Shown here one piece after another: positions 18,858-39,781 of a stretch of 64,000 nt of DNA. Source of the stretch: an uncultured Planctomycetales bacterium (lineage in GTDB: Bacteria; Planctomycetota; MHYJ01; JACPRB01); NCBI GenBank assembly GCA_964619955.1, contig CAZUJF010000002.1:8155-72154 (forward strand). Reading direction: 5' to 3'. The translations under genes were made by a program, and so were the position numbers. A model generated the notes under the pieces. It was not told where the DNA came from, did no database searches, and saw nothing but the letters and a program-made list of their open reading frames with translations. Each line of letters begins with the position of its first letter. The stretch's first letter is position 1.

Positions 18858-18914
18858 GATTTGGTTATAGCAGGCAGGGCCGCGGCGGAGGGCATATAAA
18901 CCGGTGGAGCGGCG

Positions 18915-19481: not shown

Positions 19482-19532
19482 GGCCCTGATGATAGGCCGC
19501 CCCCCGCTCCGGGGCAAGCCGAGGGGGGCCGC

Positions 19533-22238: not shown

Positions 22239-23980
22239 CAGGAGACCTCCTCCTTGCCGAGGTAGGCCTCGATGACCTTCGGGTCGCGGCGGATCTCCTC
22301 GGGTGTGCCCTCCGCGATCTTGGTGCCGTACTGCAGCACCGCGATGCGGTCGCTGATGCCCATGACGACCTTCATGTGGTGCTCGATGAGCAGCACCGTG
22401 ATGCCGCGGTCGCGGATGCGCCGGATCAGGTGCATGAGGTCGTGGCTCTCCGCGGGGTTCATCCCGGCGGCGGGCTCGTCGAGCAGCAGCAGCCTGGGCT
22501 CCGTGGCGAGCGCGCGGGCGATCTCCAGGCGGCGCTGGTCGCCGTAGGGGAGGTTGCGGGCAAGTGTGCCGGCCCTGTCGCGGATGCCGACGAAGTCGAG
22601 CAGCTCCAGCGCCTTCGTCCGCGCGGCCTCCTCGTCGGCTTTCGCGCGCGGGGTGTTCAGCGCGACGGCCCAGACGGGCGTGGTCCGGCGGGCGTCCATG
22701 CCCATGATCACGTTCTCGACGACGAGCATGTCCGGGAAGAGGCGGATGTTCTGGAACGTGCGGGCGACGCCGTTGCGGGTGATGTAATCCGTGGTGCGGC
22801 GCGCGCGGCTCCAGACGACGGTGCTGCCGCCCGCGCCGAGCGCGAGGCCGGCGAAGAGCGAGAGCCAGACGAGGAAGCGTTCGCGGGCCTGGGCGCCGCG
22901 CACGGCGGCCAGTTCCGGAGTTTCGCCTGCGTGGATGCGCTTCTGAAGCGTGCGGATCTCCTCGGCGGCGAGCTGGGGGGACGCCGCAAAGCCCAGGCTC
23001 TGGGCCGAGGCGCGGGTGACCAGGCGCCAGCGGAGTTTGCCCGAGGCGACGGCGAGGTCGAGGATGCGCTTGCGGGCAGCGTCGGCGCTGTCCTGCACGT
23101 CGAGCACCTGCCGGCGGCCGTCGTCCAGGATGAGCCACTTCCCCGCGGCGCTCTGCACCTCCGCCTGCGCGGCCCAGGCCAGGGCGCTCTTGTGATCCTC
23201 GGCCTCAAAGCGCTGGGCGAATTTCCCCAGGATGCGTTCGCCCTTCATGAGCAGAAAGGCCCCCGCCTTTTCCACAAGCGCGGCTTCCGGGAGCTCGCGC
23301 AGGTCCTGGGCCGCCTGCCGCGCCGCGGCTTCGCCGTCGTGGCTGGAGATCAGGGTCCCGGCCGGGAGCCGGACCAGCCAGCGGCCATCGCCGCTCGCCA
23401 CGGTGCGGGGGCTGCCCGCGAGATTCACCAGGTTCTGGAGGACTTCAAGCCGGCGCGTGGCGGCCTCCTCGTCGTCGAGGGTTTCGAGGACCGCCTTGTT
23501 GCCGCGGCTGCGGATCTCGAATTTGCCGGCGCGGGGTTTCACCTCGAGCTCCGTGAGGCGGTTGCGTTCCTTCTCCGAGAGGATGCCCGCGTTCAGGTAG
23601 GTCCAGAAATCCCCCGCCGCCTTGGCGGTCGGAAAGGGTTCGGAAGGGTCGCTGAAGTTGAGCAGGACGACGGCGCGCCAGAGGCCGTCGAGGTTGCTGC
23701 TCGCGAGCGCCAGCAGGAGGCCGGTCAGCAACCCGATGAGTCCGAACGTGAATCCGACGACGGGGCGGAAGGGACGGCGCAGGCTTTGGCCGTCGAAAAG
23801 CACCTCGCCCTCGGTGGGTTCGTAAACGCCGGTGATGGCGTTGAACACGGTGGTCTTTCCCGCGCCGTTGGGGCCGATCACGGAATAGACCTGGCCCTTC
23901 TCGACCGAGAAGCCCACCTGGTTCACGGCGGTGAGGCCGCCGAAGCGCATCGTGACGTTCTTCAGCTCGAGCATCGCCAT
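22238..23980 (-). CDS. livG: LivG-like ABC ATP-binding protein with a ~330-aa insertion inside the nucleotide-binding domain
   Basis: The N-terminus MLELKNVTMRFGGLTAVNQV...GPNGAGKTTVFN and the C-terminal ~180 aa (RTFQNIRLF...YGDQRRLEIARAL...LLLLDEPAAGMN...IEHHMKVV) are canonical LivG. They are separated by an insert flanked by two predicted TM helices. Confidence 0.8.
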   Translation of the reverse strand: MAMLELKNVTMRFGGLTAVNQVGFSVEKGQVYSVIGPNGAGKTTVFNAITGVYEPTEGEVLFDGQSLRRPFRPVVGFTFGLIGLLTGLLLALASSNLDGLWRAVVLLNFSDPSEPFPTAKAAGDFWTYLNAGILSEKERNRLTELEVKPRAGKFEIRSRGNKAVLETLDDEEAATRRLEVLQNLVNLAGSPRTVASGDGRWLVRLPAGTLISSHDGEAAARQAAQDLRELPEAALVEKAGAFLLMKGERILGKFAQRFEAEDHKSALAWAAQAEVQSAAGKWLILDDGRRQVLDVQDSADAARKRILDLAVASGKLRWRLVTRASAQSLGFAASPQLAAEEIRTLQKRIHAGETPELAAVRGAQARERFLVWLSLFAGLALGAGGSTVVWSRARRTTDYITRNGVARTFQNIRLFPDMLVVENVIMGMDARRTTPVWAVALNTPRAKADEEAARTKALELLDFVGIRDRAGTLARNLPYGDQRRLEIARALATEPRLLLLDEPAAGMNPAESHDLMHLIRRIRDRGITVLLIEHHMKVVMGISDRIAVLQYGTKIAEGTPEEIRRDPKVIEAYLGKEEVS

Positions 23981-23982
23981 GG

Positions 23983-25008
23983 TTAAGGGGTTCCTCCCCC
24001 GCCCGCCGGCGCCGGGTCTTCGCGATGCGCGCGTCGCGACGGCAGGATGCCGGAGGGACGGAAGCGCATCATGAGGATCAGGGCCAGCCCGAAGACGATG
24101 AGCTTGAAGTTGCTGAAGCGGAGGGTCGAGCCGCTCTTCTGCACGGCCTCGTCGAGCAGCGGGGTGAGGACGTTGTCGTAGCCCATCAGGACAAAGGTCC
24201 CGATCAGCGCGCCGGGGATGTTTCCCATGCCGCCGATGATGAGGAAGCAGAGCACGGTGATCGAGCGGCCGAAGTCGTAGGCGTCGGGCGCCGTCTGGTC
24301 GAGCGATGCGGCGTAGATCGAGCCCGCCAGCCCGGCGAGGGCGGCGCCGAGCGCGAACGCCGAGAGCTTCACGTTCGCCGCGTTCAGGCCCATGCAGCTG
24401 GCGGCGAGTTCGTCCTCCCGGATGGCCATCCAGCTGCGGCCGAGGCGGGAGTTCTCGAGGTTTCTCAGGAGCCAGACCACGAGTCCGAGCACGACGAGGG
24501 CCAGATAGTAGTAGCCGCGGTAGCTGCCCGACCAGTCCGGCGTGAATCCCGGCAGCTGCGGATCCGGGATGGGGTTGAGCGCCTTGGAGCCGTTGGTGAT
24601 GGATTCGAGATTCTTGATGGCGAATTTGATCACCTCGCCGAAGCCGAGCGTGACGATCGCCAGATAGTCCCCGCGCAGGCGAAGGGTCGGTGCGGCGAGC
24701 AGCATGCCCGCCAGGCCGGCGCCGAGGAGGGATGCCAGCATCGCGGGCCAGAAGCCCCAGCGGAACGGGAACTGGTCGACGGTCAGGATGCCCGTGATGT
24801 ACGCGCCGATTCCGAAGAACGCGGCGATGCCGAGCTGGAGCAGGCCCGTGTAGCCGACGACGACGTTCAGCCCGAGCGCGAGGATGCAGAAGATCAGGAT
24901 GTCCTTCACCTGGGCGCCCAGCCAGGGCGTGATGAAGGGCAGGAAGGGCAGCAGCGCGAGCAGAACGAACGTCCCGGGCAGGGCGTAGCGCTTCAGAGCG
25001 GGGTTCAT
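23983..25008 (-). CDS. livM: branched-chain amino acid ABC transporter permease LivM
   Basis: 341-aa multi-TM permease. The 684-aa track ORF is over-extended upstream. Confidence 0.8.
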   Translation of the reverse strand: MNPALKRYALPGTFVLLALLPFLPFITPWLGAQVKDILIFCILALGLNVVVGYTGLLQLGIAAFFGIGAYITGILTVDQFPFRWGFWPAMLASLLGAGLAGMLLAAPTLRLRGDYLAIVTLGFGEVIKFAIKNLESITNGSKALNPIPDPQLPGFTPDWSGSYRGYYYLALVVLGLVVWLLRNLENSRLGRSWMAIREDELAASCMGLNAANVKLSAFALGAALAGLAGSIYAASLDQTAPDAYDFGRSITVLCFLIIGGMGNIPGALIGTFVLMGYDNVLTPLLDEAVQKSGSTLRFSNFKLIVFGLALILMMRFRPSGILPSRRAHREDPAPAGGGGTP

Positions 25009-25916
25009 ACCTTCTCCCTCGTGCGCGCGCCGAGCAGGCCGGAGGGGCGGAACACGAGCAGCACGATGAGGATGCCGAAGACGAGGGCGCTGGTCCACTG
25101 CTCGCCCACGTACTGGCTGCCGAGGGAGCGGACGAGGCCGATGATGATGCCGCCGAGCATCGCGCCGGGGAGATTGCCGATGCCGCCGAGCACCGCGGCG
25201 GTGAACGCGTACAGGCCGTTCTGGTAGCCCATCTGGAAGGAGACCGTGTTGATCGTCAGGCCGTAGATGACGCTCGCGGCGCCCGCGAGCAGGCCGCCGA
25301 TCACGAACGTCGCCGAGATGACGAAGTCCACGTCGATGCCCATGAGCCGCGCGGCGACCGGATTCTGCGCCGTGGCCCGCATCGCCTTGCCGAGCTTGGT
25401 CTTCCGGACGAAGAGTGTCAGCCCGGCCATGAGCGGGACGGTGACGAGCAGCACGGCGAGGTCCTTGGCGGTGAAGCGGAGCGAGTCCCCGGGGAGCAGG
25501 TTGCGGTTGGGGATGATGTCGGGGAAATTCCTGTCGGCCACGCCCATCCAGACCTGGCCGATGCCCATGAACACGAACGAGACGCCGATCGCGCTGACGA
25601 GCGGCGTAAGCTTCGGGGCGCTGCGGATGGGCTTGTAGACGACGCGGTCCTGCAGCAGGTTGATCCCGGCGCAGAAGATCATGGTGCAGATGAAGACCAG
25701 CAAAACACCGAAGGTCGCGCCGACGGGGCCCGCCTTCTCGAGCTGGAGGAAGCTTACGAGCATGAGGGCGAGGAAGGAGCCGAGCATGAAGAGGTCGCCG
25801 TGGGCGAAGTTGATGAGCTCGATGATCCCGTAGACCATCGTGTAGCCGAGGGCGATGAGGGCGAAGAGGGTCCCGGTCGTGAGCCCGTTGAGGAGCTGCT
25901 GAAGGAAGATCAGCAT
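25005..25916 (-). CDS. livH: branched-chain amino acid ABC transporter permease LivH
   Basis: 303-aa permease with the LivH-type N-terminus LNGLTTGTLFALIALGYTMVYG. Confidence 0.85.
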   Translation of the reverse strand: MLIFLQQLLNGLTTGTLFALIALGYTMVYGIIELINFAHGDLFMLGSFLALMLVSFLQLEKAGPVGATFGVLLVFICTMIFCAGINLLQDRVVYKPIRSAPKLTPLVSAIGVSFVFMGIGQVWMGVADRNFPDIIPNRNLLPGDSLRFTAKDLAVLLVTVPLMAGLTLFVRKTKLGKAMRATAQNPVAARLMGIDVDFVISATFVIGGLLAGAASVIYGLTINTVSFQMGYQNGLYAFTAAVLGGIGNLPGAMLGGIIIGLVRSLGSQYVGEQWTSALVFGILIVLLVFRPSGLLGARTREKV

Positions 25917-25934
25917 GAGGCTGAGGGGCGGATG

Positions 25935-27149
25935 CTAATCCTCTCCCAGGACCGTCAGGAACTCGAATTTCCCGCCGCGCACGGTGTTCCCGCTCATCGA
26001 GCGCAGCGTGGTGTCGCCGTTCTTGTCGAAGGACCACTTCCCCAGCGCGCTGTCGAAGTTCTTGATCGAGATCCCGGCGGCGCGGACGGCGTCGCGGTCC
26101 TTCTTGCCCGCGCGGCGGACGGCCTCGACGGCAACTTTACCGCACTCGTAGCCGTAGACCGCGTAGCCTTCGGGGTTCTTCCCGTACTTGGCCTTGTAGG
26201 CCTCGACGAACTTCGCGCCCTTGCCCGTGAGTTTGTCCGGGGGCAGGCCGCCGAACGTGATGAGCGCGCGGTCCTGGAGGTTTTCCGCGCCGGCCGATTC
26301 GATGAAGGCCTCCTCGTAGCAGCCGTCCGGGCACATGAACTTGGCGTTGAGCCCGACGGCGAGCATGTCCTTCACGAGCTGGCCCGCCTTGGACTGCGTC
26401 GTGCCGCCGAAGTAGATGAGGTCGGGCGCGGAGGCTTTGATCTTCGTCATGAGCGGCTTGAATTCCTGCGCCCGGGCGTCGATGCCCTCGTGGCCGAGGA
26501 CTTTGAGGCCGATCTCCTCGGCGCGCGCCTTGAAGAGGTCGGCGATGCCCTTCCCGTAGACTTCGCGGTCGTCGAGGATGAAGACCTTGTTCAGGTTGAG
26601 TTTCTTCGCCCAGTCGGCGGAGACGACGCCCTGGATGTCGTCCGCGGGCACGACGCGGACGTAGTTGATCTTGCCGCTCGGGCGGTATTTCTCGGGCTCG
26701 CCGGCGTCCCCCTTGCCGGGTTTCGTGAGGCCGGGCCAGGTGTTCGCGGGGCTGACCATGAGGATGCCCGCCTGGTTGAGCTTGGGCATGGAGATCTTGG
26801 CGGCGCCGGAGTTGTAGGTTCCGATGTAGACCATGACGTCGGGATCCTTCACCGCCTGGTCGGCGTTCGCCGCTTCCTTCTCGGCGGTCCACTGTCCCGC
26901 CGCGGCGGTGGCGTCGTCGAGGTCCTCGTACTTGATCGTGAAGGCCCCGACCTTGTACGAAACCTCCTCGAAGGCCATGAGCATGCCGTTGACGATGGTG
27001 TCGGTCTGGCCGCGGGCGCTGCCGGTGCGCGGGAAGCTGGAGACGATCTTGATGACGCTCGGATCCCCTTGCGCGGGAGCGGGATGCGCTTTCGCAGGTG
27101 CCGCGAGGAGGGTGATGCCCAGGAGCGCGGCGGCGAGTCGGTTCATCAT
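25935..27149 (-). CDS. ABC transporter substrate-binding protein (LivK/Leu-Ile-Val-binding family)
   Basis: Signal peptide, then a type-I periplasmic binding fold (IKIVSSFPRTGS..., YIGTYNSGAA). Confidence 0.8.
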   Translation of the reverse strand: MMNRLAAALLGITLLAAPAKAHPAPAQGDPSVIKIVSSFPRTGSARGQTDTIVNGMLMAFEEVSYKVGAFTIKYEDLDDATAAAGQWTAEKEAANADQAVKDPDVMVYIGTYNSGAAKISMPKLNQAGILMVSPANTWPGLTKPGKGDAGEPEKYRPSGKINYVRVVPADDIQGVVSADWAKKLNLNKVFILDDREVYGKGIADLFKARAEEIGLKVLGHEGIDARAQEFKPLMTKIKASAPDLIYFGGTTQSKAGQLVKDMLAVGLNAKFMCPDGCYEEAFIESAGAENLQDRALITFGGLPPDKLTGKGAKFVEAYKAKYGKNPEGYAVYGYECGKVAVEAVRRAGKKDRDAVRAAGISIKNFDSALGKWSFDKNGDTTLRSMSGNTVRGGKFEFLTVLGED

Positions 27150-27278
27150 TTCTGCGTCCTCTGCAACAGCGGTCCCTAGGGGGGGAAGTCTAGGGCCAGT
27201 CCCCTCGGAGAGTCAATCAAAACCTCCGGACGTGATACGCCGGAGCGGCCTGTATGGGACACCGGCCGGAAGGCGAAT

Positions 27279-28178
27279 CTAACGGGCGGGAAATGAAAGA
27301 AGTTCCACGAAATGAAAGCGGCCGCCGCGGGCGACGTAAAGGGCGGGTGGGTGGGGGCGGATCTTGCTCGCTGCTGCGAGCAGGTCTTCGGGGGACGTGG
27401 AGCGCGCGCGGGCGATGAGGTCCAGCGCGGCCTTTCCCGTCAGATAGCCCCCGTACACATGCGGGCCGGGGTCCTTGCCGGCGTAGGCGCGATAGCGGGG
27501 GATGAAGTCGGCGGGGGGCGGGAAGATGGGCGTGACAAGCAGCATGCCGTCCTCGGGCTGGCCCGGCGCATCCACGCAGGAAACCTCCGGGTGGGCGTCG
27601 AAGACGAGGAAGCGGCCCTTGTAGCCCGAGGCCTTGAGGAATTTGAAGGTTTTCGCGGCGGAGCTGAACGGGGCGCTTTCGCCGGCGTGGAGGATCAGGG
27701 GCTCTCCGGAGCCTTGCACTTTCCAAACGGTGTGGATGGCGCTTTTCAGGAGCAGGGAGCGCGTGTCGTCGGGCTCCGTCAGCAGCTCGGTGACTTTCAA
27801 GCCCTCCCGTTTCGCCCAGGCGAAAACAGCTTCCGCCATCTGTTCCCGACCTGCCAGGAGATGGATGCAGGCTCTTGGGTATTCGGTTTGAAACGGGGTG
27901 ATTCCCTTTGCGTGAGTGAAGTAGAATTCGGAGGCGTCGTCCGGAGCAACCACCATCAGGGAACTTCGCACGCGGACTTTACCCGCCCTGCTGCCGGATT
28001 CTTCAAGGGCAAGTTGGAAACCGCTGCACACGGCATCCGCAAAGGGGGCATTCGGAGGACGATATATCCGTATCTCGATCTCAGGCCGGTTCCGCAGGTA
28101 GTTCCACAGCAGCGCCCCCGCGGCGCCGAAGCCGAGCAGGACGGCCAGCGCGAGCAGCGTCTTCACCGGAGGCATCAT
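27279..28178 (-). CDS. membrane-anchored hypothetical protein, possibly a degenerate periplasmic-binding-protein-like domain
   Basis: N-terminal TM helix, 299 aa, directly upstream of the liv operon on the same strand. Confidence 0.5.
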   Translation of the reverse strand: MMPPVKTLLALAVLLGFGAAGALLWNYLRNRPEIEIRIYRPPNAPFADAVCSGFQLALEESGSRAGKVRVRSSLMVVAPDDASEFYFTHAKGITPFQTEYPRACIHLLAGREQMAEAVFAWAKREGLKVTELLTEPDDTRSLLLKSAIHTVWKVQGSGEPLILHAGESAPFSSAAKTFKFLKASGYKGRFLVFDAHPEVSCVDAPGQPEDGMLLVTPIFPPPADFIPRYRAYAGKDPGPHVYGGYLTGKAALDLIARARSTSPEDLLAAASKIRPHPPALYVARGGRFHFVELLSFPAR

Positions 28179-28215
28179 AGACAGGCTCCGGGACCTCTGC
28201 TAGATTAGCCCCCTC

Positions 28216-28503
28216 ATGGCCATCGAACGGAAGACCGTCGAGCACGTCGCGAAGCTCGCGCGCCTCCAGCTCTCGCCGGAGGAGCTCGACCGCTACCAGA
28301 AGCAGCTCGGCGCCATCCTGGACTACGTGGCCCAGCTGCAGAAGGTCGATGTGACGGGGCTCGAGCCCCTGGCGCAGGCGGTCGACACGTTCAACGTCAT
28401 GCGCGAGGACGTGCCGAAGCCCTCCCTGCCCCCTGCGGCCGCGCTGCAGAACGCCCCGGAGAAAGCGGGCGACTTCTTCGTCGTCCCGAAGGTCGTGGAA
28501 TGA
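28216..28503 (+). CDS. gatC: Asp-tRNA(Asn)/Glu-tRNA(Gln) amidotransferase subunit C
   Basis: 95-aa GatC (VEHVAKLARLQLSPEE...VDVTGLEPL) overlapping the gatA start. Confidence 0.9.
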   Translation: MAIERKTVEHVAKLARLQLSPEELDRYQKQLGAILDYVAQLQKVDVTGLEPLAQAVDTFNVMREDVPKPSLPPAAALQNAPEKAGDFFVVPKVVE

Positions 28504-29954
28504 GCGACGCTCTTTCGATCCGCCAGGACGTCGCCTCGAAGAAGACCTCGGCCCTCGAGGTCGCGCAGCGCTACCTCGCCCGCACCGAGGCCATCGATCC
28601 GAAGGTGCGCGCGTTCCTCTCCATCACGAAGGACGCGGCGCTCGCGCAGGCGCGGGCGTTGGACGAGAAACTTGCGAAGGGCGGCAAGCCCGGCCTGCTC
28701 GCGGGCGTGCCCGTCGCGCTGAAGGACAACCTCTGCACCACGGACGCGCCGACGACCTGCGCGTCGAAAATCCTTGAGACGTACCGGCCGCCCTACGACG
28801 CGACGGTGGTGCGCCGGCTGCGCGAGGAGGACGCGATCCTCATCGGCAAGACGAACCTCGACGAGTTCGCGATGGGCTCGTCGACGGAAAACTCCGCCTA
28901 CTTCACGACGCGCAATCCCTGGAACCTGTCCTGCGTGCCCGGCGGTTCGAGCGGCGGATCGGCGGCGGCGGTGGCCGCGGGTCTGGCGCCGCTCGCGCTC
29001 GGCAGCGACACGGGCGGCTCCATCCGGCAGCCCGCGGCGCTGACGGGGACGGTGGGCTTCAAGCCGACCTATGGATTGATCTCCCGCTACGGCCTCATCG
29101 CGTTCGGATCGAGTCTGGACCAGATCGGCCCCTTCGGGCGCACGGTGCGCGACGCCGCCCTGCTCACGCAGGTGATCGCGGGCCGCGACGCGATGGATTC
29201 GACGAGTCTCGACCGTCCCGTCCCGGCCTTGGTGGAGTCTCTCGAAGGACGTTCCGCGAAGGGTCTCCGGATCGGCGTGCCCAAGGAGTATTTCGGCACG
29301 GGGCTGGATCCCGAGGTGCGCGCCTCCGTCGAGGCGGCGATCGGCAAGCTCGTGTCGCAGGGCGCCATGCGGGTGGACGTGTCGCTGCCAATGACCGACT
29401 ACGGCATCGCGGCCTACTACATCGTGGCGCCGTCCGAGGCGAGCTCGAACCTGGCGCGCTACGACGGGGTGCACTACGGGCATCGCGCCAAGGGCGGCGA
29501 GGATCTGGCGGGCATGATGTCGAAGTCGCGCCGCGAGGGCTTCGGTCCCGAGGTGACGCGGCGCATCATCCTGGGGACGTTCGCGCTCTCGGCGGGCTAT
29601 GCGCAGGCCTACTACAACCACGCGCTGAAGGTGCGCCGGGCGATCAAGCGCGACTACGACCAGGCGTTCGCGTCCTGCGACGTGCTGGTGGGTCCGACGA
29701 CGCCGACGCCCGCGTTCGCGGTGGGCGCGAAGGCGGACGATCCGCTGGCGATGTACCTCTGCGACGTCTACACGGTGGCGACGAACCTGGCCGGGCTGCC
29801 GGGGATCTCCATCCCCTGCGGCCTGAGCAAGTCGGGTCTTCCCATGGGGTTGCAGATCCAGGGCCGGGCGCTGGACGACCTCGGCGTGCTCCAGGTCGCG
29901 CGGCTTTTCGAGCGCGAGATCGGGCTTTCCCTCCCCTGGCCGTCGTTAACGTAG
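28500..29954 (+). CDS. gatA: Asp-tRNA(Asn)/Glu-tRNA(Gln) amidotransferase subunit A
   Basis: Amidase signature GGSSGGSAAAVAAG, and LAGVPVALKDN. 484 aa. Confidence 0.9.
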   Translation: MSDALSIRQDVASKKTSALEVAQRYLARTEAIDPKVRAFLSITKDAALAQARALDEKLAKGGKPGLLAGVPVALKDNLCTTDAPTTCASKILETYRPPYDATVVRRLREEDAILIGKTNLDEFAMGSSTENSAYFTTRNPWNLSCVPGGSSGGSAAAVAAGLAPLALGSDTGGSIRQPAALTGTVGFKPTYGLISRYGLIAFGSSLDQIGPFGRTVRDAALLTQVIAGRDAMDSTSLDRPVPALVESLEGRSAKGLRIGVPKEYFGTGLDPEVRASVEAAIGKLVSQGAMRVDVSLPMTDYGIAAYYIVAPSEASSNLARYDGVHYGHRAKGGEDLAGMMSKSRREGFGPEVTRRIILGTFALSAGYAQAYYNHALKVRRAIKRDYDQAFASCDVLVGPTTPTPAFAVGAKADDPLAMYLCDVYTVATNLAGLPGISIPCGLSKSGLPMGLQIQGRALDDLGVLQVARLFEREIGLSLPWPSLT

Positions 29955-30029
29955 GTTCCGGGGCTCTCCCGGAACCGGCGCGATCGCAATAACCCATTGG
30001 GGTTCACCACAGGTGGTTCGACTCCTCTG

Positions 30030-30067
30030 GATTCCCCGGGGTGCCCAGAACGGCACCCCGGGGAATC
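30030..30067 (+). repeat. perfect 16-bp-stem palindrome (GATTCCCCGGGGTGCC-CAGAAC-GGCACCCCGGGGAATC), terminator-like hairpin without a U-tract
   Basis: Read directly from the sequence, 75 nt after the gatA stop and 18 nt before the tRNA. Confidence 0.45.
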
Positions 30068-30085
30068 TAGAGTCGCTCACCACAA

Positions 30086-30171
30086 GCCGGGGTGGCGAAA
30101 CTGGCATACGCTGGGGTTTTAAAAACCCCTGGTCCGCAAGGGCCGTGAGGGTTCAAGTCCCTCCCCCGGCA
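30086..30171 (+). tRNA. tRNA-Leu (anticodon UAA), type II with long variable arm; no encoded CCA
   Basis: Manual cloverleaf: acceptor GCCGGGG/CCCCGGC, anticodon stem GGGGU/ACCCC with loop UUUAAAA (U33, UAA, A37), variable stem GGUCC-GCAA-GGGCC, T-arm GAGGG-TTCAAGT-CCCTC, discriminator A. Confidence 0.8.
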
Positions 30172-30351
30172 CTTCGACTCCTCGCCTTTCCGGCTTCGCC
30201 GGAAAGACTCGTCGCTCAGTGCAAGCATTGCAGCAACGGAAGATCCCTCTCGGCGGAAGGCGAGGAGTCGAAGTGTGGTGAGCCTGCCGAACCAGCGGAG
30301 CCCGACGCTTCCAAGACGCCGGGCGGAGTCGAAGCAGGATAAGATGGGGGT

Positions 30352-30834
30352 GTGAAAGGATCGCTCCTCCCTCTGCTGCTGGCGCTAGGTGCTTGTTCTC
30401 AATCTTCGGAATCACCTTCCGCACCATGCCAGCGACTTCAGGTCCGCGGTGAGAAACTTACGCACAGTACGGGTCCCCCTCCTCATTATGGATGGTCATT
30501 TTGTGGATCGATCTCCCTTAAGGATGCCCCCCAGTCCAAGGTCATCTCGGACCGGTCGATTCCTCGGCGGCTCATGGGAAAGGACGGTAAGAACAAGGTG
30601 GACTTCCTCACGAACCGCTCTCGCGTCCGGATCATCGACGGGGGTTTCTATTTCATGGGGATTATCGAGGAGTCGGCACACTTCGGTTTCGCCCTAGATA
30701 CAAAGTGCGACCCCGATGTTTTCATTGAGTTCGAAGATCCCGTGGGAGGGAATTGGTCCGCCCGAGGGACGATGGAGATCCTGAAGGCCGGGCAGCCACG
30801 CCATCCCGACCTAGAGCAGGCGCTGAAAAAGTGA
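30352..30834 (+). CDS. lipoprotein of unknown function in a low-GC islet
   Basis: Lipobox LLLALGAC. Local GC is clearly below the window average. The gene is flanked by the tRNA on the left and repeat copy B on the right. Confidence 0.5.
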   Translation: MKGSLLPLLLALGACSQSSESPSAPCQRLQVRGEKLTHSTGPPPHYGWSFCGSISLKDAPQSKVISDRSIPRRLMGKDGKNKVDFLTNRSRVRIIDGGFYFMGIIEESAHFGFALDTKCDPDVFIEFEDPVGGNWSARGTMEILKAGQPRHPDLEQALKK

Positions 30835-30872
30835 GCCTCCACTGGTCAATGGGGCACCCCCCTCTCGGGCCT

Positions 30873-30980
30873 CTCAATAATCGATGGCTTTAGAGCCCCT
30901 TGGGGCGCAAGGGCCGTGAGGGCCTGGTCACGCCGGAGCCAACGACGGTTCCGGCGGAGGCGGCTCAAGTCCCTCCTCCC
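30873..30980. repeat. ~100-bp repeat copy B, containing a tRNA-3'-end-like fragment (GCAAGGGCCGTGAGG...TCAAGTCCCTCC)
   Basis: Shares 15-nt and 12-nt exact blocks with the variable arm and T-arm of the tRNA-Leu at 30086. Its 5' part CTCAATAATCGATGGCTTTAGAGCCCC parallels copy C. Confidence 0.5.
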
Positions 30981-31278
30981 ATCCCCTCTTGGGCTGTCTT
31001 GAAGAATGTGGTTTCTGGAAAAACCACATCAGGTTCCGCCTGTCCCCTCCAAGTCAGATGCACGACCGCAAAGAGGGCGGGGCCGTTGACCAGCGAGAAA
31101 AGCACATCGTCACTGTCGGTGCATTTCCCCAACGCGCTCGCCCTGACGCCATAGAGGGGGTGGGCCGGTGAGAGTTCAAGGGCAAGCTCTGCCTCCAACC
31201 TTGCGGCGGAGGGGCCACTCACTGGCTCCCATGGGGATCGCCAAATCAGCTCCACTTCGGAGATCATATCGAGATGCC

Positions 31279-31373
31279 TGTTCAATAACCGATGTTTTAC
31301 AAGCCCCCTTGACCGCAGGAGTCTGTTCCCGCCGCAGTCGACGACGGATCCGGCGGAGGGTCGCGCCCCCTCC
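31279..31373. repeat. ~100-bp repeat copy C (degenerate direct repeat of copy B)
   Basis: TTCAATAACCGATGTTTTACAAGCCCC...GACGACGGATCCGGCGGAGGG aligns with copy B (CTCAATAATCGATGGCTTTAGAGCCCC...AACGACGGTTCCGGCGGAGGC). Confidence 0.45.
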
Positions 31374-31432
31374 GGATTGACACGGCCGGTCGCCGCCCGG
31401 TGTACTGTCCGTACTTGGTTGAGGAGCGGCTT

Positions 31433-32365
31433 ATGCGTTGGAATCGGCGACTCTACTCCTGTGGATGGGCCGCGGCGGCCCTGCTGGCCTGCGCGCTGCC
31501 CCTGGCGGCGCAGAACGAAGCGGATCCGCCCGAGCCGCAGCCGCTCGTGCCGGGCGCGAAGGTCCTCAGACTCTGGCCCAAGGGCTCGCCCAAACTGAAA
31601 AACCTGCCCGGCTCGGACAAGCCCGAGGTCCTGCACCTGTCCAAGGGCGCCGAGCCGCGCGTGATGCACGTCGACAACATCCACAACCCCTCCCTCGAAC
31701 TTCACCTGGCTCCGGCCGAGAAAGCAAACGGCCTGGGCGTGGTCGTCGTTGCGGGCGGGGGCAACAAGACGCTCTGGGTTGGGCCCGAAGGGGTCGACGT
31801 GGCCAAGTGGCTCAACGGCCTGGGCGTGCACGCGTTCGTCGAGCGGCACCGGCTCCAGCCCTACGACTCGACGGTCGATGCGCTCGCCGACACGCAGCGC
31901 TCGATCCGCTTGGTGCGCGCGCATGCGGCGGAGTGGGGCGTGGATCCGAAGCGGGTGGGCATCATGGGCTTCAGCGCCGGGGGCGAGCAGGCCGCGTGGG
32001 TGACGCTCAAGTTCGACGCCGGCGACCCCAAGGCCGAGGACCCCGTGGAGCGCGAGAGCTGCCGGCCGGATTTCTCGGTGCTGATCTACCCGGGCTGGAA
32101 GCGGATGGACCTCGACAGCGTGCCGAAGAACACGCCCCCGTCGTTCATCACCTGCGCCGGCATCGACGACGCGTTCCACGCGAAACAATCCGTGGAGTTC
32201 TACCTGGCGCTCTTCAACGCGAAGATCCCCGTCGAGATGCATCTCTACGGCCGCGGCGGCCATGGCGGCAGCATCGACCCACGCAAGGGCATCCCCTTCG
32301 GCAGCTGGCCCGCCCGCTTCGTCGAGTGGGCGAAGGACCTGAAGCTGATGGACGCGAAGCCGTGA
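31433..32365 (+). CDS. secreted alpha/beta-hydrolase (esterase/lipase family)
   Basis: Signal peptide, nucleophile elbow GFSAGG, and a catalytic His region near the C-terminus (GGHGG). Confidence 0.75.
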   Translation: MRWNRRLYSCGWAAAALLACALPLAAQNEADPPEPQPLVPGAKVLRLWPKGSPKLKNLPGSDKPEVLHLSKGAEPRVMHVDNIHNPSLELHLAPAEKANGLGVVVVAGGGNKTLWVGPEGVDVAKWLNGLGVHAFVERHRLQPYDSTVDALADTQRSIRLVRAHAAEWGVDPKRVGIMGFSAGGEQAAWVTLKFDAGDPKAEDPVERESCRPDFSVLIYPGWKRMDLDSVPKNTPPSFITCAGIDDAFHAKQSVEFYLALFNAKIPVEMHLYGRGGHGGSIDPRKGIPFGSWPARFVEWAKDLKLMDAKP

Positions 32366-33618
32366 AGCGGATCCTGACCGGCCGGCGCTCGTTCTTGAAG
32401 ACTTCGGCCGCTCTGGCGGCCGCCGCCCCCCTGTCGGGCTGTTTGCTCGAGAAGCAGTCCCCCGCCGGCCCCCTCATCGCGTACGTCGGCACCTTCAGCT
32501 CGCCCCTCCGCGACATGCTGCCCACCCAGGTGGATCTCCCGCCCGGGAACGGCCGCGGCATCCATCTCTTCCAGGTCGATCGCGCCACCGGCGCGCTGAC
32601 GCCGCAGGGCGTCGTCGAGAGGGGCACGAGCCCGAGCTGCCTCGCGCTCAATGCGGCCGGCACCCGCCTCTATTCCGCCAACGAGACCGACCGCGTCGGC
32701 GAGGACAAGCAGGGAACGGTCAGCGCCTTCGCCGTGACCCGGACGGACGGCGCCCTCCAGCTCCTCAACACCGTGCGCTCCGGCGGCGCCGGGCCCACCT
32801 ATGTGAGCGTCCATCCGGGAGGACGCCATCTGCTCGTCGCCAACTACTTCGGCGGTTCCGTGGCGGTGCTCCCGATCCAAGCCGACGGCCGCCTGGGCGA
32901 GGCCACGGACATCAAGGTCGACGCCGGCAAGATCGGCCCTCCGCGGGCCCCGCACGCCCCGCCCGGCAGTTTCGCCTTCAGCGGCCACGACCGCACCCAC
33001 GCCCACATGATCCAGGCGGACCCCTCGGGACGCCGCGTCCTGCACGTCGACCTGGGCCTGGACCAGATCTTCGTCTGGACCTTCGACGTCCAGCGCGGCG
33101 TGCTGACCCCGAACGACCCGCCCTCGGTGCCGCTGCCCCCCGGAGACGGGCCGCGGCACTTCCATTTCCATCCCAACGGCCGCTGGTTCTACTCCATCCA
33201 GGAGGAAGGCTCGACGCTCGTGCTCTTCGACTACGACGCCGCTTCCGGCCGGCTGAGCCCGCGGCAGACGATCTCCACGCTTCCAGCCGGTTTTGCGGGC
33301 AGCAACTTCTGCTCCGAGATCCTGGTGTCCGCGGACGGCCGCTTCGTTTACGCCGGCAACCGGCTGCACGACAGCATCGGCATCTTCTCGGTCGGCGGCG
33401 ACGGCGTCCTGACGCACGTCGGCGAGGAATGGACGCGCGGCAACTATCCGCGCAGCTTCACGTTCGATCCCACGGGCCGCTTCCTCTACTGCTGCAACCA
33501 GCGCGGGGACAACGTCGCCGTCTTCCGGGTGGACCGCTCGAGCGGAGGGTTGAGCTTCAGCGGCCATTATGCGCCCGTCGGCAACCCCTCGCACATCGTC
33601 TTCCTCGATCTCGCCTGA
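32362..33618 (+). CDS. lactonase, 7-bladed beta-propeller family (6-phosphogluconolactonase-like) with Tat-type signal
   Basis: GTG start overlapping the esterase stop. RRSFLKTSAALAAAAP twin-arginine motif. Repeated hydrophobic/Gly blades: LLVANYFGGSVAV, RFVYAGNRLHDSIGIF and RFLYCCNQRGDNVAVF. Confidence 0.7.
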   Translation: MKRILTGRRSFLKTSAALAAAAPLSGCLLEKQSPAGPLIAYVGTFSSPLRDMLPTQVDLPPGNGRGIHLFQVDRATGALTPQGVVERGTSPSCLALNAAGTRLYSANETDRVGEDKQGTVSAFAVTRTDGALQLLNTVRSGGAGPTYVSVHPGGRHLLVANYFGGSVAVLPIQADGRLGEATDIKVDAGKIGPPRAPHAPPGSFAFSGHDRTHAHMIQADPSGRRVLHVDLGLDQIFVWTFDVQRGVLTPNDPPSVPLPPGDGPRHFHFHPNGRWFYSIQEEGSTLVLFDYDAASGRLSPRQTISTLPAGFAGSNFCSEILVSADGRFVYAGNRLHDSIGIFSVGGDGVLTHVGEEWTRGNYPRSFTFDPTGRFLYCCNQRGDNVAVFRVDRSSGGLSFSGHYAPVGNPSHIVFLDLA

Positions 33619-33635
33619 CGCTATACTGTCGCCCG

Positions 33636-34586
33636 ATGGCGCCAAGCGCTCCGGCTTCCCTCGCGCTGTCGATCGACTGCGACGGCTGCACCCTGGAGAG
33701 GCTCCATCGCGTGCTCCGCTACTGGGCCACGGACGAGACGACCGAGTTCGGCCCCGGATTGCAGCTGCCCGTCGCCTCGTCGATGTTCGCGTATTCGAGG
33801 AATCCCGCGGCGCCGCCGCAGGCGTCCTACCTGGACGGAGATCGCGACGGATTGCTGGAGGCCTGGCGGCGCGGCTGGATCGACAGCCTCCACGGCCTCG
33901 GGGATTTCTCGGCGGCGCAGCCCTGCACCCGCGAGCTCGCCCGCCGGGCCTTCGACGCGCTCGCCGCCGACGGAGTGCGCCTCCGCGTCTGGACCAACCA
34001 CGGGGGTCCCGAGAACGTCCAGAATCTCCTCAAGGACGGGGCCGTCGGGGATCAGCCCGGCTCCGCCTGTTATCTGGCCGACCTGGCCCATGACTACGGC
34101 ATCCGCTACGTCTGGAACAGCGAGCTGACCCCGCTGGTGGGGCAGGGCCGCGATGCGGCGCCGGCCGAATATTACGCCCGGCACGCGGACCGGCCGCTCC
34201 TCGCGCGCTGGACGGCGCGGCTGGCCCACGGATGGGGCGGGCAGCTGGTCCGCAGCGCCGGGATCGTGCCGTATCCGGGCAACCGGCTGCTGGAGCGGCG
34301 GAGACTTCGCGACGGCCGGGAGGTCCGGACGTTCCTCCGCTACGGCCGCTGGCGCTTCGACACGATCTCGCGCCTTCCCCTCATCCTCTCCGAAGCGGTG
34401 CTCGACGAGCTGGCCGCCTCCGGGGCCGCGATGATCGTCTATCTGCACATCGGCCCCTCTCCGGACGAGACGCCCGAGAATCTGCGGCTCGGGATGAAGG
34501 CGCTGGACGCCGTCGCGCGCCGGGTCCGCGAGGGAAGGCTCCGGGTGGCCCGAACGGCGGACCTGCTCGATCAGGCCGCTGTTTGA
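33636..34586 (+). CDS. hypothetical protein (possibly a polysaccharide-deacetylase-like hydrolase)
   Basis: 316 aa from the internal Met of the track ORF. The SIDCDG and WTNHGGPEN motifs are only weakly reminiscent of the NodB fold. Confidence 0.45.
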   Translation: MAPSAPASLALSIDCDGCTLERLHRVLRYWATDETTEFGPGLQLPVASSMFAYSRNPAAPPQASYLDGDRDGLLEAWRRGWIDSLHGLGDFSAAQPCTRELARRAFDALAADGVRLRVWTNHGGPENVQNLLKDGAVGDQPGSACYLADLAHDYGIRYVWNSELTPLVGQGRDAAPAEYYARHADRPLLARWTARLAHGWGGQLVRSAGIVPYPGNRLLERRRLRDGREVRTFLRYGRWRFDTISRLPLILSEAVLDELAASGAAMIVYLHIGPSPDETPENLRLGMKALDAVARRVREGRLRVARTADLLDQAAV

Positions 34587-34746
34587 AGCCGCGTCGTGCG
34601 GGCGATGCGCCGGGCCTCGCGGCGAATCCGAAGCCGGCGAGGAAGCCGGACACCCGCCGGAACTCCGCGTCGCCCCCGGTCCGGTGGGAGGCCGCGGTTC
34701 CGCCCCGGCGGACGGTGGCGGAGTTGCGGAGGGCGGCGCCTTGGCG

Positions 34747-36504
34747 TCAGCGCAGCTTCCAGAAGTGGAATCCGCCCAGCTCACGGGGCGGACCGCAGCG
34801 CTGCTCGAGCAGGTCGCGCCGCGCTGTCCGCCGCGTCTCCACGCCGAAGGCTTCGAGCTGGGCGTCGGTGAGCGTCCGAAAGAAGGCCACCCGGGGGACG
34901 AGGGTCCCCTTCTCCGCCGTCACGGCGACATCGAAGCGGCCCGGGTTTTCACGAAGCAGCCCGAGCACGTCCGCTTCGCTCACGCCCGTCCGGCGGCCCC
35001 CGGAATTCTCCGGGACCAGCTCCTGGCGGGGGGCGTCGTACCACTCGCAGTAGCGATCGCCGTAGAAGGGGGTGTAGAAGGGGATCGAATCCGTCAACAG
35101 GAGCACTCGGGCGTCGGGCGGCACCGCGTCCCGCAGCGCCAGGCCCAGCCGGTGATAGAATTCGTAGGCCCCCTCGGTGCTCAGTCTCCGGTGCAGCATC
35201 CAGCCGCTCTGGAGCAGGCAGAGGCCCAGCAGGGCCGGCACGAGCGGGAGGGCGGGGGCGGGACGCCGCGCCTGGAGCCAGGATCCGATCCGCGCGAGGC
35301 CCGACGCGGCGGCCAGCGCGAAGAAGACGACGAGCGGATAGCTGAAGTATTCGTGACCGGCGGCCAGACTGCGAAAGACGAACTCGTCCAGTCCGAGCAG
35401 GGCGAGCCCCAGGATCACGCGGTCGTCGCGCGTCAGGCCCCGCCGGAAGAGGGTGGCGAGCCAGGCCGCGGCAAGCCCGAGCGCCGGCACCGTCATCAGC
35501 AGCGCCAGTTCGCGGCACTCCCCGGACAGATAGCCCAGCAGCGAGCGGTCCTGAAGGGCGCTGCGGGAGACGGCCGCGGTGAAAAGCTTGCGGATCGGGT
35601 CGAGGTCGGGCGGCGACGCGGCCCACAGCTGGAGGAGGTACAGCCCGAAGACCGCCCCGTTCCAGGGGATCAGGGCGAGCACCGTGCCCGTCCGGCCCTG
35701 GCCGCTGCGGACATGGGCGGCGGCCAGCGCCAGCGCGATGTAGTAGCCGGACCAGGAGCAATAGCAGGCGAAGAGGATCGAGAGCAGCAGCCCTGCGAGA
35801 TCGGGCCTCCGTCCGCCGTCCCGCCAGCGCAGATAACAGAGGACGGCGGAGAGCGTCCCGACGAGCCCCATCACCTGCAGCCCCGTCACGATCGAGTAGT
35901 ACGCAAAGCTTGGCAGGAAGGCGAAGATCAGCGTCGCCGCGCGGTCGCAGGGGGCCGGCACGAGGCGCCGGGCGACGGCGTGGAACAGCAGCACCGCCGA
36001 AAGGGAGAACAGGATGAACGTGATCCTGAAGCTCGCTTCACTGACGCCGAAGAGCGCGAAGGAGCCGGCGAGGACGAGCACGGGGAGCGGCGGGTGATTC
36101 GCATAGTAGTAGCGCCGGTGATCCGGATAGGGATCGAGGCTGGGGCCCGAAACGTCGAGTTTGAGCCCGAAGGTCTTCGAGAGGCCGAACTTGAGATGGT
36201 TGCGGGCGTGTTTGCCCAGCTCCGCGCCCACGGATTCGTGCTGCCGGAGGAACGGCCGGGTCAGGTGCACGCTTTGCACGAGCGCGAGCGCGAGCAGGAG
36301 GGCCGTGAGGAAGGCGGCCTCGCTTTTCCGGCTGCTCAAGGCTGCGCCCCTCGCGCCCCCGGGGAGAGCCAGGCGAAGTAGGAACAATAGATTTCCAGCG
36401 TGCGCCGGAGCGGGGGGAGGCCGTCCACGTCCCGAGTGTAGCGCGCCCTTCTTCGCCTTTTGCTCGCGATTTGCTGAATCCGGACGCGCGGCATGACGAT
36501 ACAA
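34747..36504 (-). CDS. GT39/ArnT-like membrane glycosyltransferase (PMT_2 family)
   Basis: About 11 TM helices with the YYYANHPPLP family motif. The real start may be an internal TTG near 36345. Confidence 0.65.
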   Translation of the reverse strand: MYRHAARPDSANREQKAKKGALHSGRGRPPPAPAHAGNLLFLLRLALPGGARGAALSSRKSEAAFLTALLLALALVQSVHLTRPFLRQHESVGAELGKHARNHLKFGLSKTFGLKLDVSGPSLDPYPDHRRYYYANHPPLPVLVLAGSFALFGVSEASFRITFILFSLSAVLLFHAVARRLVPAPCDRAATLIFAFLPSFAYYSIVTGLQVMGLVGTLSAVLCYLRWRDGGRRPDLAGLLLSILFACYCSWSGYYIALALAAAHVRSGQGRTGTVLALIPWNGAVFGLYLLQLWAASPPDLDPIRKLFTAAVSRSALQDRSLLGYLSGECRELALLMTVPALGLAAAWLATLFRRGLTRDDRVILGLALLGLDEFVFRSLAAGHEYFSYPLVVFFALAAASGLARIGSWLQARRPAPALPLVPALLGLCLLQSGWMLHRRLSTEGAYEFYHRLGLALRDAVPPDARVLLLTDSIPFYTPFYGDRYCEWYDAPRQELVPENSGGRRTGVSEADVLGLLRENPGRFDVAVTAEKGTLVPRVAFFRTLTDAQLEAFGVETRRTARRDLLEQRCGPPRELGGFHFWKLR

Positions 36505-36710
36505 CCCGTGACATGCGCACGTCGAAACGCAGCCCGCTCCGGATCACGCCCTCCCTGCGGCGGAAGATCGACGACCTCGCGCTCTGGCTGGGCGAAGGCC
36601 GCCCCCGGGCGGTCGCCGAGGCCCGCCGCGCCTTCGTCGGACTTCTGACGGAAGCCGCGCGGCAGCCGCTGCTGACGCTGTTGGGCGAGCCCGGCGACCC
36701 TATCCCTTGA
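36471..36710 (+). CDS. small hypothetical protein, possibly ribbon-helix-helix-like
   Basis: 79-aa ORF. LRITPSLRRKIDDLALWLGE has a beta-strand-then-helix pattern like CopG/Arc. It overlaps the ends of both neighbours, so it may be spurious. Confidence 0.25.
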   Translation: MLNPDARHDDTTRDMRTSKRSPLRITPSLRRKIDDLALWLGEGRPRAVAEARRAFVGLLTEAARQPLLTLLGEPGDPIP

Positions 36711-37998
36711 GCGGCAGCTGGTAGGTGAAGCGGAACTCCATGCCCTCGAGACGGGCCTCCGGGAGGATGCTCACCTGCGCCATCTTCAGCACCCGGCCCT
36801 CGGCGTCCTTCACCTCGACGGGCTGGACCTGCACCGCCGTCTCCGGCGACTTCTTCGCCAGGGGTCCGAGGAATTCGAGCAGCTCCGTTCTGAGGAACCC
36901 GGCGCCCGCCTCCCCCGCCGGCATCTCGTCCATCAGGAACGCGCACAGCTGCGCGAGGCGCCCCGCCATCATCTGATACCCGAAGGTCCCCGCGACGGTG
37001 AGCCTGCCGGGCGCGCTGCGGTGGGTGTTCACCGCCAGCGGGATCATGAGCGAGTCCGCGTTCATGCGCCCGCAGAGCGGCGTGAATCCGCCGCGGGCCA
37101 GCTCCTGGACCAGCGTGTCGGGCACCTCGACCTCGGTCGTGAGCGGGACGGACTGGTTCGCGGCCTTGAAGTGCGGCCGGGTGGGCAGGCCCTGGAAGCC
37201 GCCCGAGCGCGGGCCGGTCAGGTCGATCGCATGGCCGATCGCGGCGATGCTCCGGGCGGCGGAGGCCGCCACGATCCACACCCCTCTGCCCCAGAGCCAG
37301 GTTTCGGGTTTCGAAGGGTCGGTCTTCTCCGCGAAGCCCCCCTTGTCCGCCGTGTACGGCATCCGCTGCAGCCAGCGGTTGACCGTGAGCGAGGTCCAGC
37401 GCGCCGTCTCGGACTTCTGGAATTTCTGCCAGGCCGCGTGCGCGCCGTCCATCAGGCGCTGCGGAATGTCCCCGAGTTTCGACAGCAGATTCAGCTGCTT
37501 GAGGCCGAAGAACGCCGCTGAAGCGCCGGCGAGCAGCGGCGCCTGGGCGACCTTCGCCATGTCGCCGAGTTCCGTGAGCGCGGCCAGGTCCGACCCCAGA
37601 TGCGAGTAGTCGTAGTCGGCGATCACGAGCCCCAGGGGCGGCGTGCGCAGCTCGCGCATCTCCGGTTCGAAGACCGCCTCGCGGAAGCGCGCCGCCGCCT
37701 CCTTCGCCGTCGCGCTGAGCACGTCGATGCGGATCCCCTTCGCATGCTCCTGCAGCAGGCGGAGGCCGCGCAGCGCCGATTCGACGCGCTGGAACGCGGG
37801 GTCGTGCAGGACGGCGTCCGAAGCCTGGACCAGCGAGGCTTCGCCGGAGAGTTCGATGCGGCCGCCGCCCGCCTCCACGGAGGGTCGCAGGGCGCCGAGG
37901 ATCGCGTCGAGGCCGCCTTCGGCGGGGATGCGGACCGGATCCTTCGAGAAGAGGCCGAGGTCCGCGAGGACGACGAAGCGCCAGCCGAGGGGTTTCAT
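36700..37998 (-). CDS. fused, truncated TssB/TssC-like contractile-sheath paralog (432 aa)
   Basis: N-terminal WRFVVLADLGLFSKDP resembles the canonical TssB segment FKMLVMGDFTGRTDD. FQRVESALRGLRLL, VIADYDYSHLGSDLAALTELGDMAKVAQAPLLAGASAAFFG and NRWLQRMPY parallel the canonical TssC at 52263 (FQKLESAWRGIKLL, IVANYDFGPGPQDIALLQKLASVATMSHAPFIANAGPKFFG, PRFLLRLPYG). Confidence 0.7.
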   Translation of the reverse strand: MKPLGWRFVVLADLGLFSKDPVRIPAEGGLDAILGALRPSVEAGGGRIELSGEASLVQASDAVLHDPAFQRVESALRGLRLLQEHAKGIRIDVLSATAKEAAARFREAVFEPEMRELRTPPLGLVIADYDYSHLGSDLAALTELGDMAKVAQAPLLAGASAAFFGLKQLNLLSKLGDIPQRLMDGAHAAWQKFQKSETARWTSLTVNRWLQRMPYTADKGGFAEKTDPSKPETWLWGRGVWIVAASAARSIAAIGHAIDLTGPRSGGFQGLPTRPHFKAANQSVPLTTEVEVPDTLVQELARGGFTPLCGRMNADSLMIPLAVNTHRSAPGRLTVAGTFGYQMMAGRLAQLCAFLMDEMPAGEAGAGFLRTELLEFLGPLAKKSPETAVQVQPVEVKDAEGRVLKMAQVSILPEARLEGMEFRFTYQLPLKG

Positions 37999-38007
37999 CA
38001 GGATCTC

Positions 38008-39642: not shown

Positions 39643-39736
39643 GTCGCAACTCCGTGTCGAACCGACCACAGTGCAGCGTGTGGGAAGGGGGGAGTCAAGC
39701 AAAAGGACCGGCGTGTCGCAAAGGCGCGGATGCCTG

Positions 39737-39766
39737 TTTGACACTTCTCGGGGGGACGGGTTAAGA
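39737..39766 (+). promoter_or_regulatory. sigma-70-like promoter candidate TTGACA-N18-TAAGAT in the divergent intergenic region
   Basis: Read from the sequence. It would place the transcription start ~8 nt before the annotated ATG at 39782, implying a near-leaderless mRNA. Confidence 0.25.
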
Positions 39767-39781
39767 TTGTCCGCTCATTCT

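Follow-up and report, generated by a model that had tools for sequence, protein, structure and literature searches.

Integrase-less islets bounded by decayed, displaced tRNA fragments point to a probable integration hot spot at the gatA/tRNA-Leu(UAA) junction of an uncultured planctomycete

We analyzed a 64,000-nt stretch of DNA (the window) from an uncultured Planctomycetales bacterium (assembly GCA_964619955.1, contig CAZUJF010000002.1, positions 8,155 to 72,154), in which gatA, the gene for amidotransferase subunit A, is followed by a tRNA-Leu(UAA) gene and then by ~1.2 kb of extra low-GC DNA (57-60% GC) carrying two copies, B and C, of a repeat of ~100 nt. We consider it likely, with a probability of about 0.75, that the gatA/tRNA-Leu(UAA) junction is an integration hot spot and that B and C are decayed attachment-site junctions of the attR type, left by two accreted islets without an integrase. 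The original prediction, made from the letters of the window, was that this region holds decayed attachment (att) scars of elements integrated into a tRNA gene; it is supported by empty sites in two relatives, by tRNA-bounded islets in others, and by a 16-nt flank shared between genomes. Remnants of mobile DNA in a tRNA gene are well known, and the find is ordinary in kind; it consists of tandem, integrase-less islets at a tRNA-Leu(UAA) hot spot in uncultured Planctomycetota, a phylum with few such descriptions. Judged by its GatA homologs, the organism belongs among uncultured Planctomycetota. The arrangement of the locus is not an assembly artefact, since a Logan assembly made independently for the same organism (L085) agrees with it at 100% identity across positions 29438-41267.

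Repeat B consists of a flank motif, TCTCAATAATCGATGG (30872-30887), a tRNA-like stretch corresponding to approximately nt 32-66 of the tRNA (30888-30922), an insertion (30923-30963) and a piece resembling the T-loop and stem (30964-30980). The prediction that B reproduces the variable arm and T-arm of the tRNA, with an internal insertion of ~40 nt, agrees with the alignment: the variable arm and T-stem are reproduced at 17/17 nt (30906-30922, equal to 30135-30151) and the T-loop at 12/12 nt (30965-30976, equal to 30153-30164), and the insertion that parts the two blocks is 41 nt long. The similarity of B to the tRNA, 81% over 37 nt on the same strand, was not equaled by any of 1000 shuffled sequences. 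B and C, which lie ~400 bp apart and share an internal hairpin (CGCCGGA...TCCGGCG), are homologous to each other, with a local alignment score of 213 compared to 92 ± 15 for shuffled sequences, none of 1000 reaching the observed value. Alignment of the tRNA 3′ half with both repeats, which had been proposed as a check, gave a match for B; the match of C alone was not significant (219 of 1000 shuffles). C retains 13 of the 16 positions of the flank motif. The anticodon-loop core is mutated in both repeats (CTTTAGAG and TTTTACAAG compared to TTTTAAAA), so that neither is likely to be recombinogenic any longer.

In prokaryotic genomes, annotation is known to mistake fragments of tRNA genes for tRNA genes or pseudogenes (PMC9897764). 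Partial tRNA-like sequences beside a real tRNA gene are likewise seen here, in B, in C and upstream of the tRNA, although an additional conserved flank and an internal insertion are common to several genomes. ARAGORN called two of these three regions, and only at relaxed thresholds, and no Rfam family was found in B or C, permissive thresholds yielding tRNA only. In annotation, all three should be entered as tRNA fragments, not as genes. The original prediction had also left room for a dispersed repeat, and a length of ~100 nt, an internal hairpin and two copies only ~400 bp apart would suit repeats of the MITE (miniature inverted-repeat transposable element) or REP (repetitive extragenic palindrome) type that resemble a tRNA by chance. 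The proposed search for further copies, by blastn within the window and by an nhmmer profile run on both the window and ~2.2 Mb of fetched loci, returned only the copies described here and tRNA genes. Given further that every copy lies downstream of tRNA-Leu(UAA) with one common orientation and that the repeats, in contrast to a MITE family, lack terminal inverted repeats, we regard a dispersed family as exceedingly improbable.

The comparison with orthologous loci, also proposed as a check, was made on five relatives' loci fetched after a GatA homology search (78-85% identity). In all five, gatA is followed by tRNA-Leu(UAA), with 95-98% identity between the window tRNA and those of the relatives; GatA is 78-85% identical in L170, L171, L173 and L176. 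Two loci are empty: in L171, gatA and the tRNA are followed after 210 bp by the ortholog of the esterase gene that bounds the window islets on the right, and in L170 after 140 bp by the ortholog of the lactonase gene that comes next in the window, with no islet or tRNA fragment in either. The window thus holds ~1.2 kb that both relatives lack. A weak gappy alignment of positions 30172-30351 with the whole L171 spacer (1 of 200 shuffles) contained no strong blocks and was not relied on, and tblastx of the relatives' downstream DNA against the window yielded only noise. Different tRNA-bounded islets occupy the same place in L173 and L176. L173 carries two: islet 1 has a 181-aa orphan gene and ends in rep1, which equals nt 30-87 of the L173 tRNA at 58/58 positions, and islet 2 has a 305-aa orphan gene and ends in rep2 (tRNA nt 30-67, 35/38, 92%). 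A locus from a second sample (L174) has the same hairpin module after the tRNA as L173, its contig stopping short inside islet 1; the gene layout of L173 recurs in a third sample, which was listed without DNA. The L176 islet (2.8 kb) contains two orphan genes and an ISL3 transposase (9103-10371) and ends in a repeat of tRNA nt 32-66 (35/35). The fragments in the relatives are all direct copies, at the same site and in the same orientation. In all three islet-bearing genomes the islets have a GC content of 0.57-0.60, compared to 0.69-0.72 for core genes, and the islet proteins of the window, L173 and L176 are mutually unrelated orphans. Outside this group, the closest GTDB relative (L005, GatA 65%) is syntenic with window positions 14161-29930 and has a convergent gene immediately after gatA (11381-11687) with no tRNA, its contig ending 307 bp later, which limits the gatA/tRNA-Leu linkage to a closer clade. 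A GatA-anchored scan of GTDB genomes found only relatives of ≤65% identity, and the same scan of JGI metagenome contigs found one match of 79%, cut inside gatA.

In a multiple alignment, all five fragments from the three genomes start at tRNA nt 30-32, in the anticodon stem-loop. The sequence to the left of B, TCTCAATAATCGATGG, is not derived from the tRNA and is identical at 16/16 positions to the left flank of L173 rep1; a related motif, ATCTATGG, lies to the left of L173 rep2. With this flank included, B matches L173 5432-5482 at 86% over 51 nt. B is also homologous to L173 rep2, insertion included (0 of 1000 shuffles), and an insertion of 41-48 nt after tRNA position 66 is common to B, C and rep2; the L176 repeat breaks at this same position. 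At the other end, the module 3′ of the window tRNA is homologous to L173 4709-4749. It comprises a hairpin, CTTCGA(C/T)TC(C/G)TCGC ... GCGA(G/C)GA(G/A)TCGAAG, in which the two genomes differ by two compensatory pair changes and no disruption, followed directly in both by TGTGGTGAGC; the sequence TCGAAGTGTGGTGAGC 3′ of the tRNA is identical at 16/16 positions. A further box, GAGTCGAA, occurs ~35-45 nt downstream, the L173 copy (at 4774) being at the corresponding distance from its tRNA. In gatA, by comparison, the genomes agree at only 61-65% of synonymous third positions, and their gatA-tRNA spacers do not align. The end motifs are therefore either under constraint or recently transferred, and such conservation is what attachment-site arms would be expected to display.

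Replication slippage or unequal crossing-over could in principle have produced B and C by local segmental duplication and decay, with no site-specific integration. The two repeats are indeed paralogs with a common flank and insertion, an integrase is lacking, and L173 carries within islet 2 (6560-6655) a second, diverged gatA 3′ end together with tRNA nt 1-15 and a perfect hairpin of another sequence, which suggests that host DNA was carried along from the flank or that a pseudo-locus arose by duplication. Duplication does not readily account for five fragments in three genomes that all start in the anticodon stem-loop beside a conserved non-tRNA flank, nor for inter-repeat DNA of low GC content that varies from genome to genome, nor for the islet-free sites of L171 and L170, and we consider it very unlikely.

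We propose instead that mobile elements entered the tRNA gene by site-specific recombination, crossing over in the anticodon stem-loop. With each integration, a 3′ half carried by the element would have completed the tRNA anew, while the 3′ half already there would have been moved downstream and left as a displaced fragment behind the end of the element, that is, as an attR-type junction. At least two integrations of this kind would have accreted in tandem in the window, giving islet 1 (~30172-30887), which carries a lipoprotein gene, and islet 2 (~30981-31294), which carries a truncated 100-aa gene, and both would have lost any integrase. The catalyst would presumably have been a tyrosine integrase, the conserved motifs may be binding sites for the recombinase or accessory proteins, and the hairpin with TGTGGTGAGC is most likely the inner, P′-side end of the putatively youngest element; the hairpin may at the same time serve as the 3′ structure of the tRNA. 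Decay of the window copies is apparent in the mutated cores of B and C and in the 100-aa gene, which is devoid of the C-terminal residues of its homologs.

This proposal has precedents. A regenerated tRNA gene (tDNA) and a displaced fragment mark the ends of genomic islands, among which a class with crossover in the anticodon loop exists (PMC4383910). As in the islands detected by Islander, an intact tDNA is accompanied here by direct displaced 3′ fragments from the anticodon loop on (17/17 and 12/12 nt in B; 58/58, 35/38 and 35/35 in the relatives), the fragment boundary (tRNA nt 30-32 in all five) lies at a recognized crossover sublocation, and DNA of foreign composition, absent from L171 and L170, lies between the repeats in tandem arrays. 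Islander islands are, however, defined by a tyrosine integrase inside the island, which the window islets lack, and they range from several kb to tens of kb, compared to 0.3-0.8 kb for the window islets and 0.7-2.8 kb for those of the relatives; moreover, decay has left the window fragments at 81% over 37 nt, and the 41-nt insertion interrupts them. Integrated elements can also decay to integrase-less cis-mobilizable elements (CIMEs), which accrete in tandem (PMC5704250). The CIMEs related to ICESt1 of Streptococcus thermophilus resemble our islets in the absence of integration and transfer genes, in their att-type repeats, and in their tandem position at the 3′ end of a tRNA or other gene; L173 islet 1, with its perfect 58-nt repeats, is the best fit. 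CIMEs retain both attL and attR; the att-type repeats are intact in L173 islet 1 (58/58) and degenerate in the window, where the core is mutated and decay has probably gone too far for recombination. CIMEs derive from an integrative and conjugative element (ICE) or an integrative and mobilizable element (IME) and can be mobilized once accreted with a functional element; for the islets, no intact relative turned up in viral, phage or plasmid collections. The islets also differ from CIMEs in host phylum (Planctomycetota), in target gene, and in consisting of much smaller single-gene units. An integron gene cassette array, which has attC sites (imperfect palindromes) and an adjacent integron integrase with attI, was considered and rejected: the repeats are tRNA-derived direct repeats, and there is no adjacent integrase.

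Several observations weigh against integration as the explanation. No integrase was found in the window islets, within ~10 kb, or in the islet of any relative; as predicted, Pfam and PHROG scans of the two window islet open reading frames (ORFs; 160 aa and 100 aa) were negative, and no Pfam integrase label occurs in L085, L170, L171, L173 or L176. Nor was an element bearing attP found in viral contigs, phages or plasmids: the viral-contig scans gave no match to the tRNA 3′ half or to the flank/tRNA junction, and the phage and plasmid collections gave no match to the islet. The block ACGACGGWTCCGGCGGAGG of B and C had three matches in viral contigs, none with similarity beyond a 19-22-nt block, and these were discarded. 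In size (0.3-0.8 kb) the islets fall far below usual genomic islands. The shared insertion of 41-48 nt is not predicted by a simple displacement model, and repeat C is tied to the tRNA through its sequence similarity to B only. The inner part of the 3′ module is homologous to the sequence just 3′ of the tRNA in L170, which is free of islets, so this part may be native rather than element-derived. Finally, integration alone does not explain the palindromes that flank the tRNA.

The same data bear on a bolder proposal, in which tRNA-Leu(UAA) anchors a gene-capture array: the islets would be still-mobile, non-autonomous cassettes of ~0.7-0.8 kb, each with a single gene and conserved ends, stacked in tandem at the anticodon loop through the action in trans of a recombinase (integrase) encoded elsewhere. 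One cassette end may be the hairpin with TGTGGTGAGC and GAGTCGAA, and the opposite end TCTCAATAATCGATGG. Islet 1 of the window (~715 bp) and islet 1 of L173 (~736 bp) indeed have ends of the same type, with left ends that share the hairpin and both boxes and right ends that are identical at 16/16 positions, together with unrelated cargo, which leaves room for a trans-mobilized, cassette-like family; the perfect 58-nt direct repeats of L173 islet 1 and the conservation of the end motifs far above neutral expectation point the same way. There are, however, two examples only, the mutated cores of B and C and one truncated cargo gene indicate decay, and no integrase, circular form or attP was seen. 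Differential deletion, or replacement of cargo by homologous recombination between conserved ends, fits the same data. We therefore regard active cassettes as unlikely; if they were real, they would amount to an integron-like function with tRNA-derived attachment sites. The end motifs and the perfect 58-nt repeat pair of L173 are handles for hunting the cognate integrase and active excision.

The setting of the tRNA gene amid strong palindromes, noted in the original prediction, was verified by the ARAGORN and Rfam calls and by repeat searches. The predicted perfect 16-bp stem upstream of the tRNA is present (30030-30045 / 30052-30067, 6-nt loop) within a larger palindrome that has a fold energy of -47 kcal/mol (z = -8.0). 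A resemblance of this hairpin to the tRNA 5′ end (15/20) was not significant on its own and was set aside. Perfect hairpins of 13-18 bp lie between gatA and the tRNA in L173 (4583-4614) and L176 (7452-7484) as in the window (30025-30072), and another is found in the L173 pseudo-locus (6604-6638); their position is conserved, their sequences are mutually unrelated, and none has a T-run. The 10-nt inverted repeat said to flank the tRNA was found as GCTCACCACA (30075-30084) and TGTGGTGAGC (30274-30283). The inverted repeat described 3′ of the tRNA is also real, its perfect length being 19 nt (30170-30188 / 30257-30275) instead of 20; the hairpin nested in it has no UUCG tetraloop as had been claimed, but reads CTTTCCGGC-TTC-GCCGGAAAG (30186-30206), with a 3-nt loop. 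These two inverted repeats had been taken as separate features and turn out to be parts of one: 30075-30084 joined to 30172-30188 is the exact reverse complement of 30257-30283 (27 nt), so that one arm of a perfect 27-nt inverted repeat is split exactly by the tRNA.

A functional RNA, either a platform for pre-tRNA processing or a set of tRNA-like small RNAs, would be another way to understand the palindromes and tRNA-like repeats. The region 29955-30300 folds with z = -9.5 relative to shuffled sequence, the cloverleaf branching off a 27-bp helix, and the two compensatory changes relative to L173 in the hairpin 3′ of the tRNA are of the kind expected from such an RNA. The complementarity between leader and trailer is, however, absent in L173, L176, L170 and L171, the hairpins between gatA and the tRNA in the relatives are unrelated to that of the window, B and C lack an Rfam family and have decayed stems, B overlaps coding sequence, and the perfect Watson-Crick arms suggest a recent origin at the level of DNA. 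We judge a functional RNA to be highly improbable. A scan of 29800-31600 found no intrinsic terminator, and neither tRNA-flanking hairpin is followed by a T-run, in contrast to intrinsic terminators with their G+C-rich stem and T-run.

Short motifs are also concentrated here. All three TCACCACA sites and all three exact copies of TTCGACTCCTC in the window lie within 30004-30281, and the TCACCACA and TTCGACTCC boxes are clustered at the tRNA locus and occur almost nowhere else in the 64 kb. AATAAYCSAT sites number only three in the window, in B, in C and in the putative relic CGGCGCGATCGCAATAACCCATTGG (29976-30000), which has a marginal alignment with the left flank of L173 rep1 (10 of 1000 shuffles); ARAGORN with -ps90 reports a sub-threshold pseudo-tRNA at 29954-30037. 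The 27-nt split palindrome and the third motif copy at 30001-30027 are left over by the integration model. A 12-mer match to the tRNA at 36299-36310 is within coding sequence and was put down to chance.

The predicted low-GC interval between the tRNA and B, with its lipoprotein gene, was confirmed: the GC content of the ORF is 0.567 and that of 30284-31281 is 0.597, whereas gatA, the esterase gene and the window as a whole all stand at 0.69. The lipoprotein has only four homologs (48-65% identity), all in unrelated contexts without a tRNA and with the lipobox conserved. Gene calling on the Logan contig gave only the C-terminal 86 aa, from an internal ATG; because the homologs are 153-162 aa long and share the lipobox, the GTG at 30352 is the real start. 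Exact-protein look-ups for the lipoprotein and for GatA gave no match. The interval between B and C is low in GC as described, but it is not non-coding: it holds a minus-strand ORF of 100 aa, which the gene caller found identically in L085 (P0005) and which has homologs of 44-48% identity, so that this small ORF is a real gene. Its family, which is large, uncharacterized and without a Pfam model, comprises 2,425 clusters at 50% identity (E ≤ 1e-3), with members mostly of ~100-110 aa that sometimes form the C-terminal domain of longer proteins, and has the conserved motifs HPL, DSDDVLF and FAVVHLTW. Compared to its homologs, the window protein is short of the C-terminal ~10-30 residues, being truncated exactly at B. 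No cargo protein of the window or of the relatives' islets, the lipoprotein and the 100-aa protein included, matched anything in Pfam, PHROGs or PADLOC. AlphaFold2 models of both window cargo proteins (predicted local distance difference test, pLDDT, 82 for the 100-aa protein) had no Foldseek match in the PDB.

Coordinates of the features at the gatA/tRNA-Leu(UAA) locus, in window positions.
Feature	Position	Strand	Remarks
gatC	28216-28503		
gatA (amidotransferase subunit A)	28500-29954	+	484-aa ORF; conserved left anchor of the locus
gatA-tRNA spacer			131 nt; palindrome-rich
Small 8-bp hairpin	29955-29975	+	directly 3′ of the gatA stop codon; fold -14.4 kcal/mol
Element-end-like putative relic CGGCGCGATCGCAATAACCCATTGG	29976-30000	+	upstream of the tRNA
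Motif GGYTCACCACA-N-TTCGACTCCTC, first copy	30001-30027	+	
Large palindrome between gatA and tRNA	30025-30045 / 30052-30072	+	21-nt arms (95%), 6-nt loop
GCTCACCACA, left half of the 27-nt split inverted repeat	30075-30084	+	absent upstream of the L173 tRNA
tRNA-Leu(UAA), functional; putative integration target	30086-30171	+	Rfam tRNA 52.6 bits; ARAGORN 30086-30172
Module 3′ of the tRNA	30170-30283	+	112 nt; 19-bp perfect stem, 68-nt loop, nested hairpin, then TGTGGTGAGC
TTCGACTCC box, fourth copy	30323-30333	-	1 mismatch
Putative lipoprotein (islet 1 cargo)	30352-30834	+	160 aa; signal peptide and LGAC lipobox; GC 0.567
Repeat B, candidate attR-type junction	30872-30980	+	end motif, tRNA-like stretch, insertion, T-loop/stem-like piece
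100-aa ORF (islet 2 cargo)	30968-31267; stop 30965-30967	-	last 7 codons and stop inside B
Repeat C, more decayed paralog of B	31279-31376	+	flank motif, tRNA-like stretch and insertion as in B
Esterase gene (BD-FAE / Abhydrolase_3)	31433-32365	+	Pfam; conserved right anchor

Approximately 5 kb downstream of the islets, the window contains VipB and VipA/VipB type VI secretion sheath-like genes (36700-37998 and 38008-39642, both on the minus strand), and a cluster of the same kind is also carried by L170. A small conserved ORF, MRTSKRSPLRITPSLRRKIDDLALWLGEGRPRAVAE..., runs on the plus strand from ~36514; its homologs, of 60-67 aa, occupy the corresponding place in L170 and L171.

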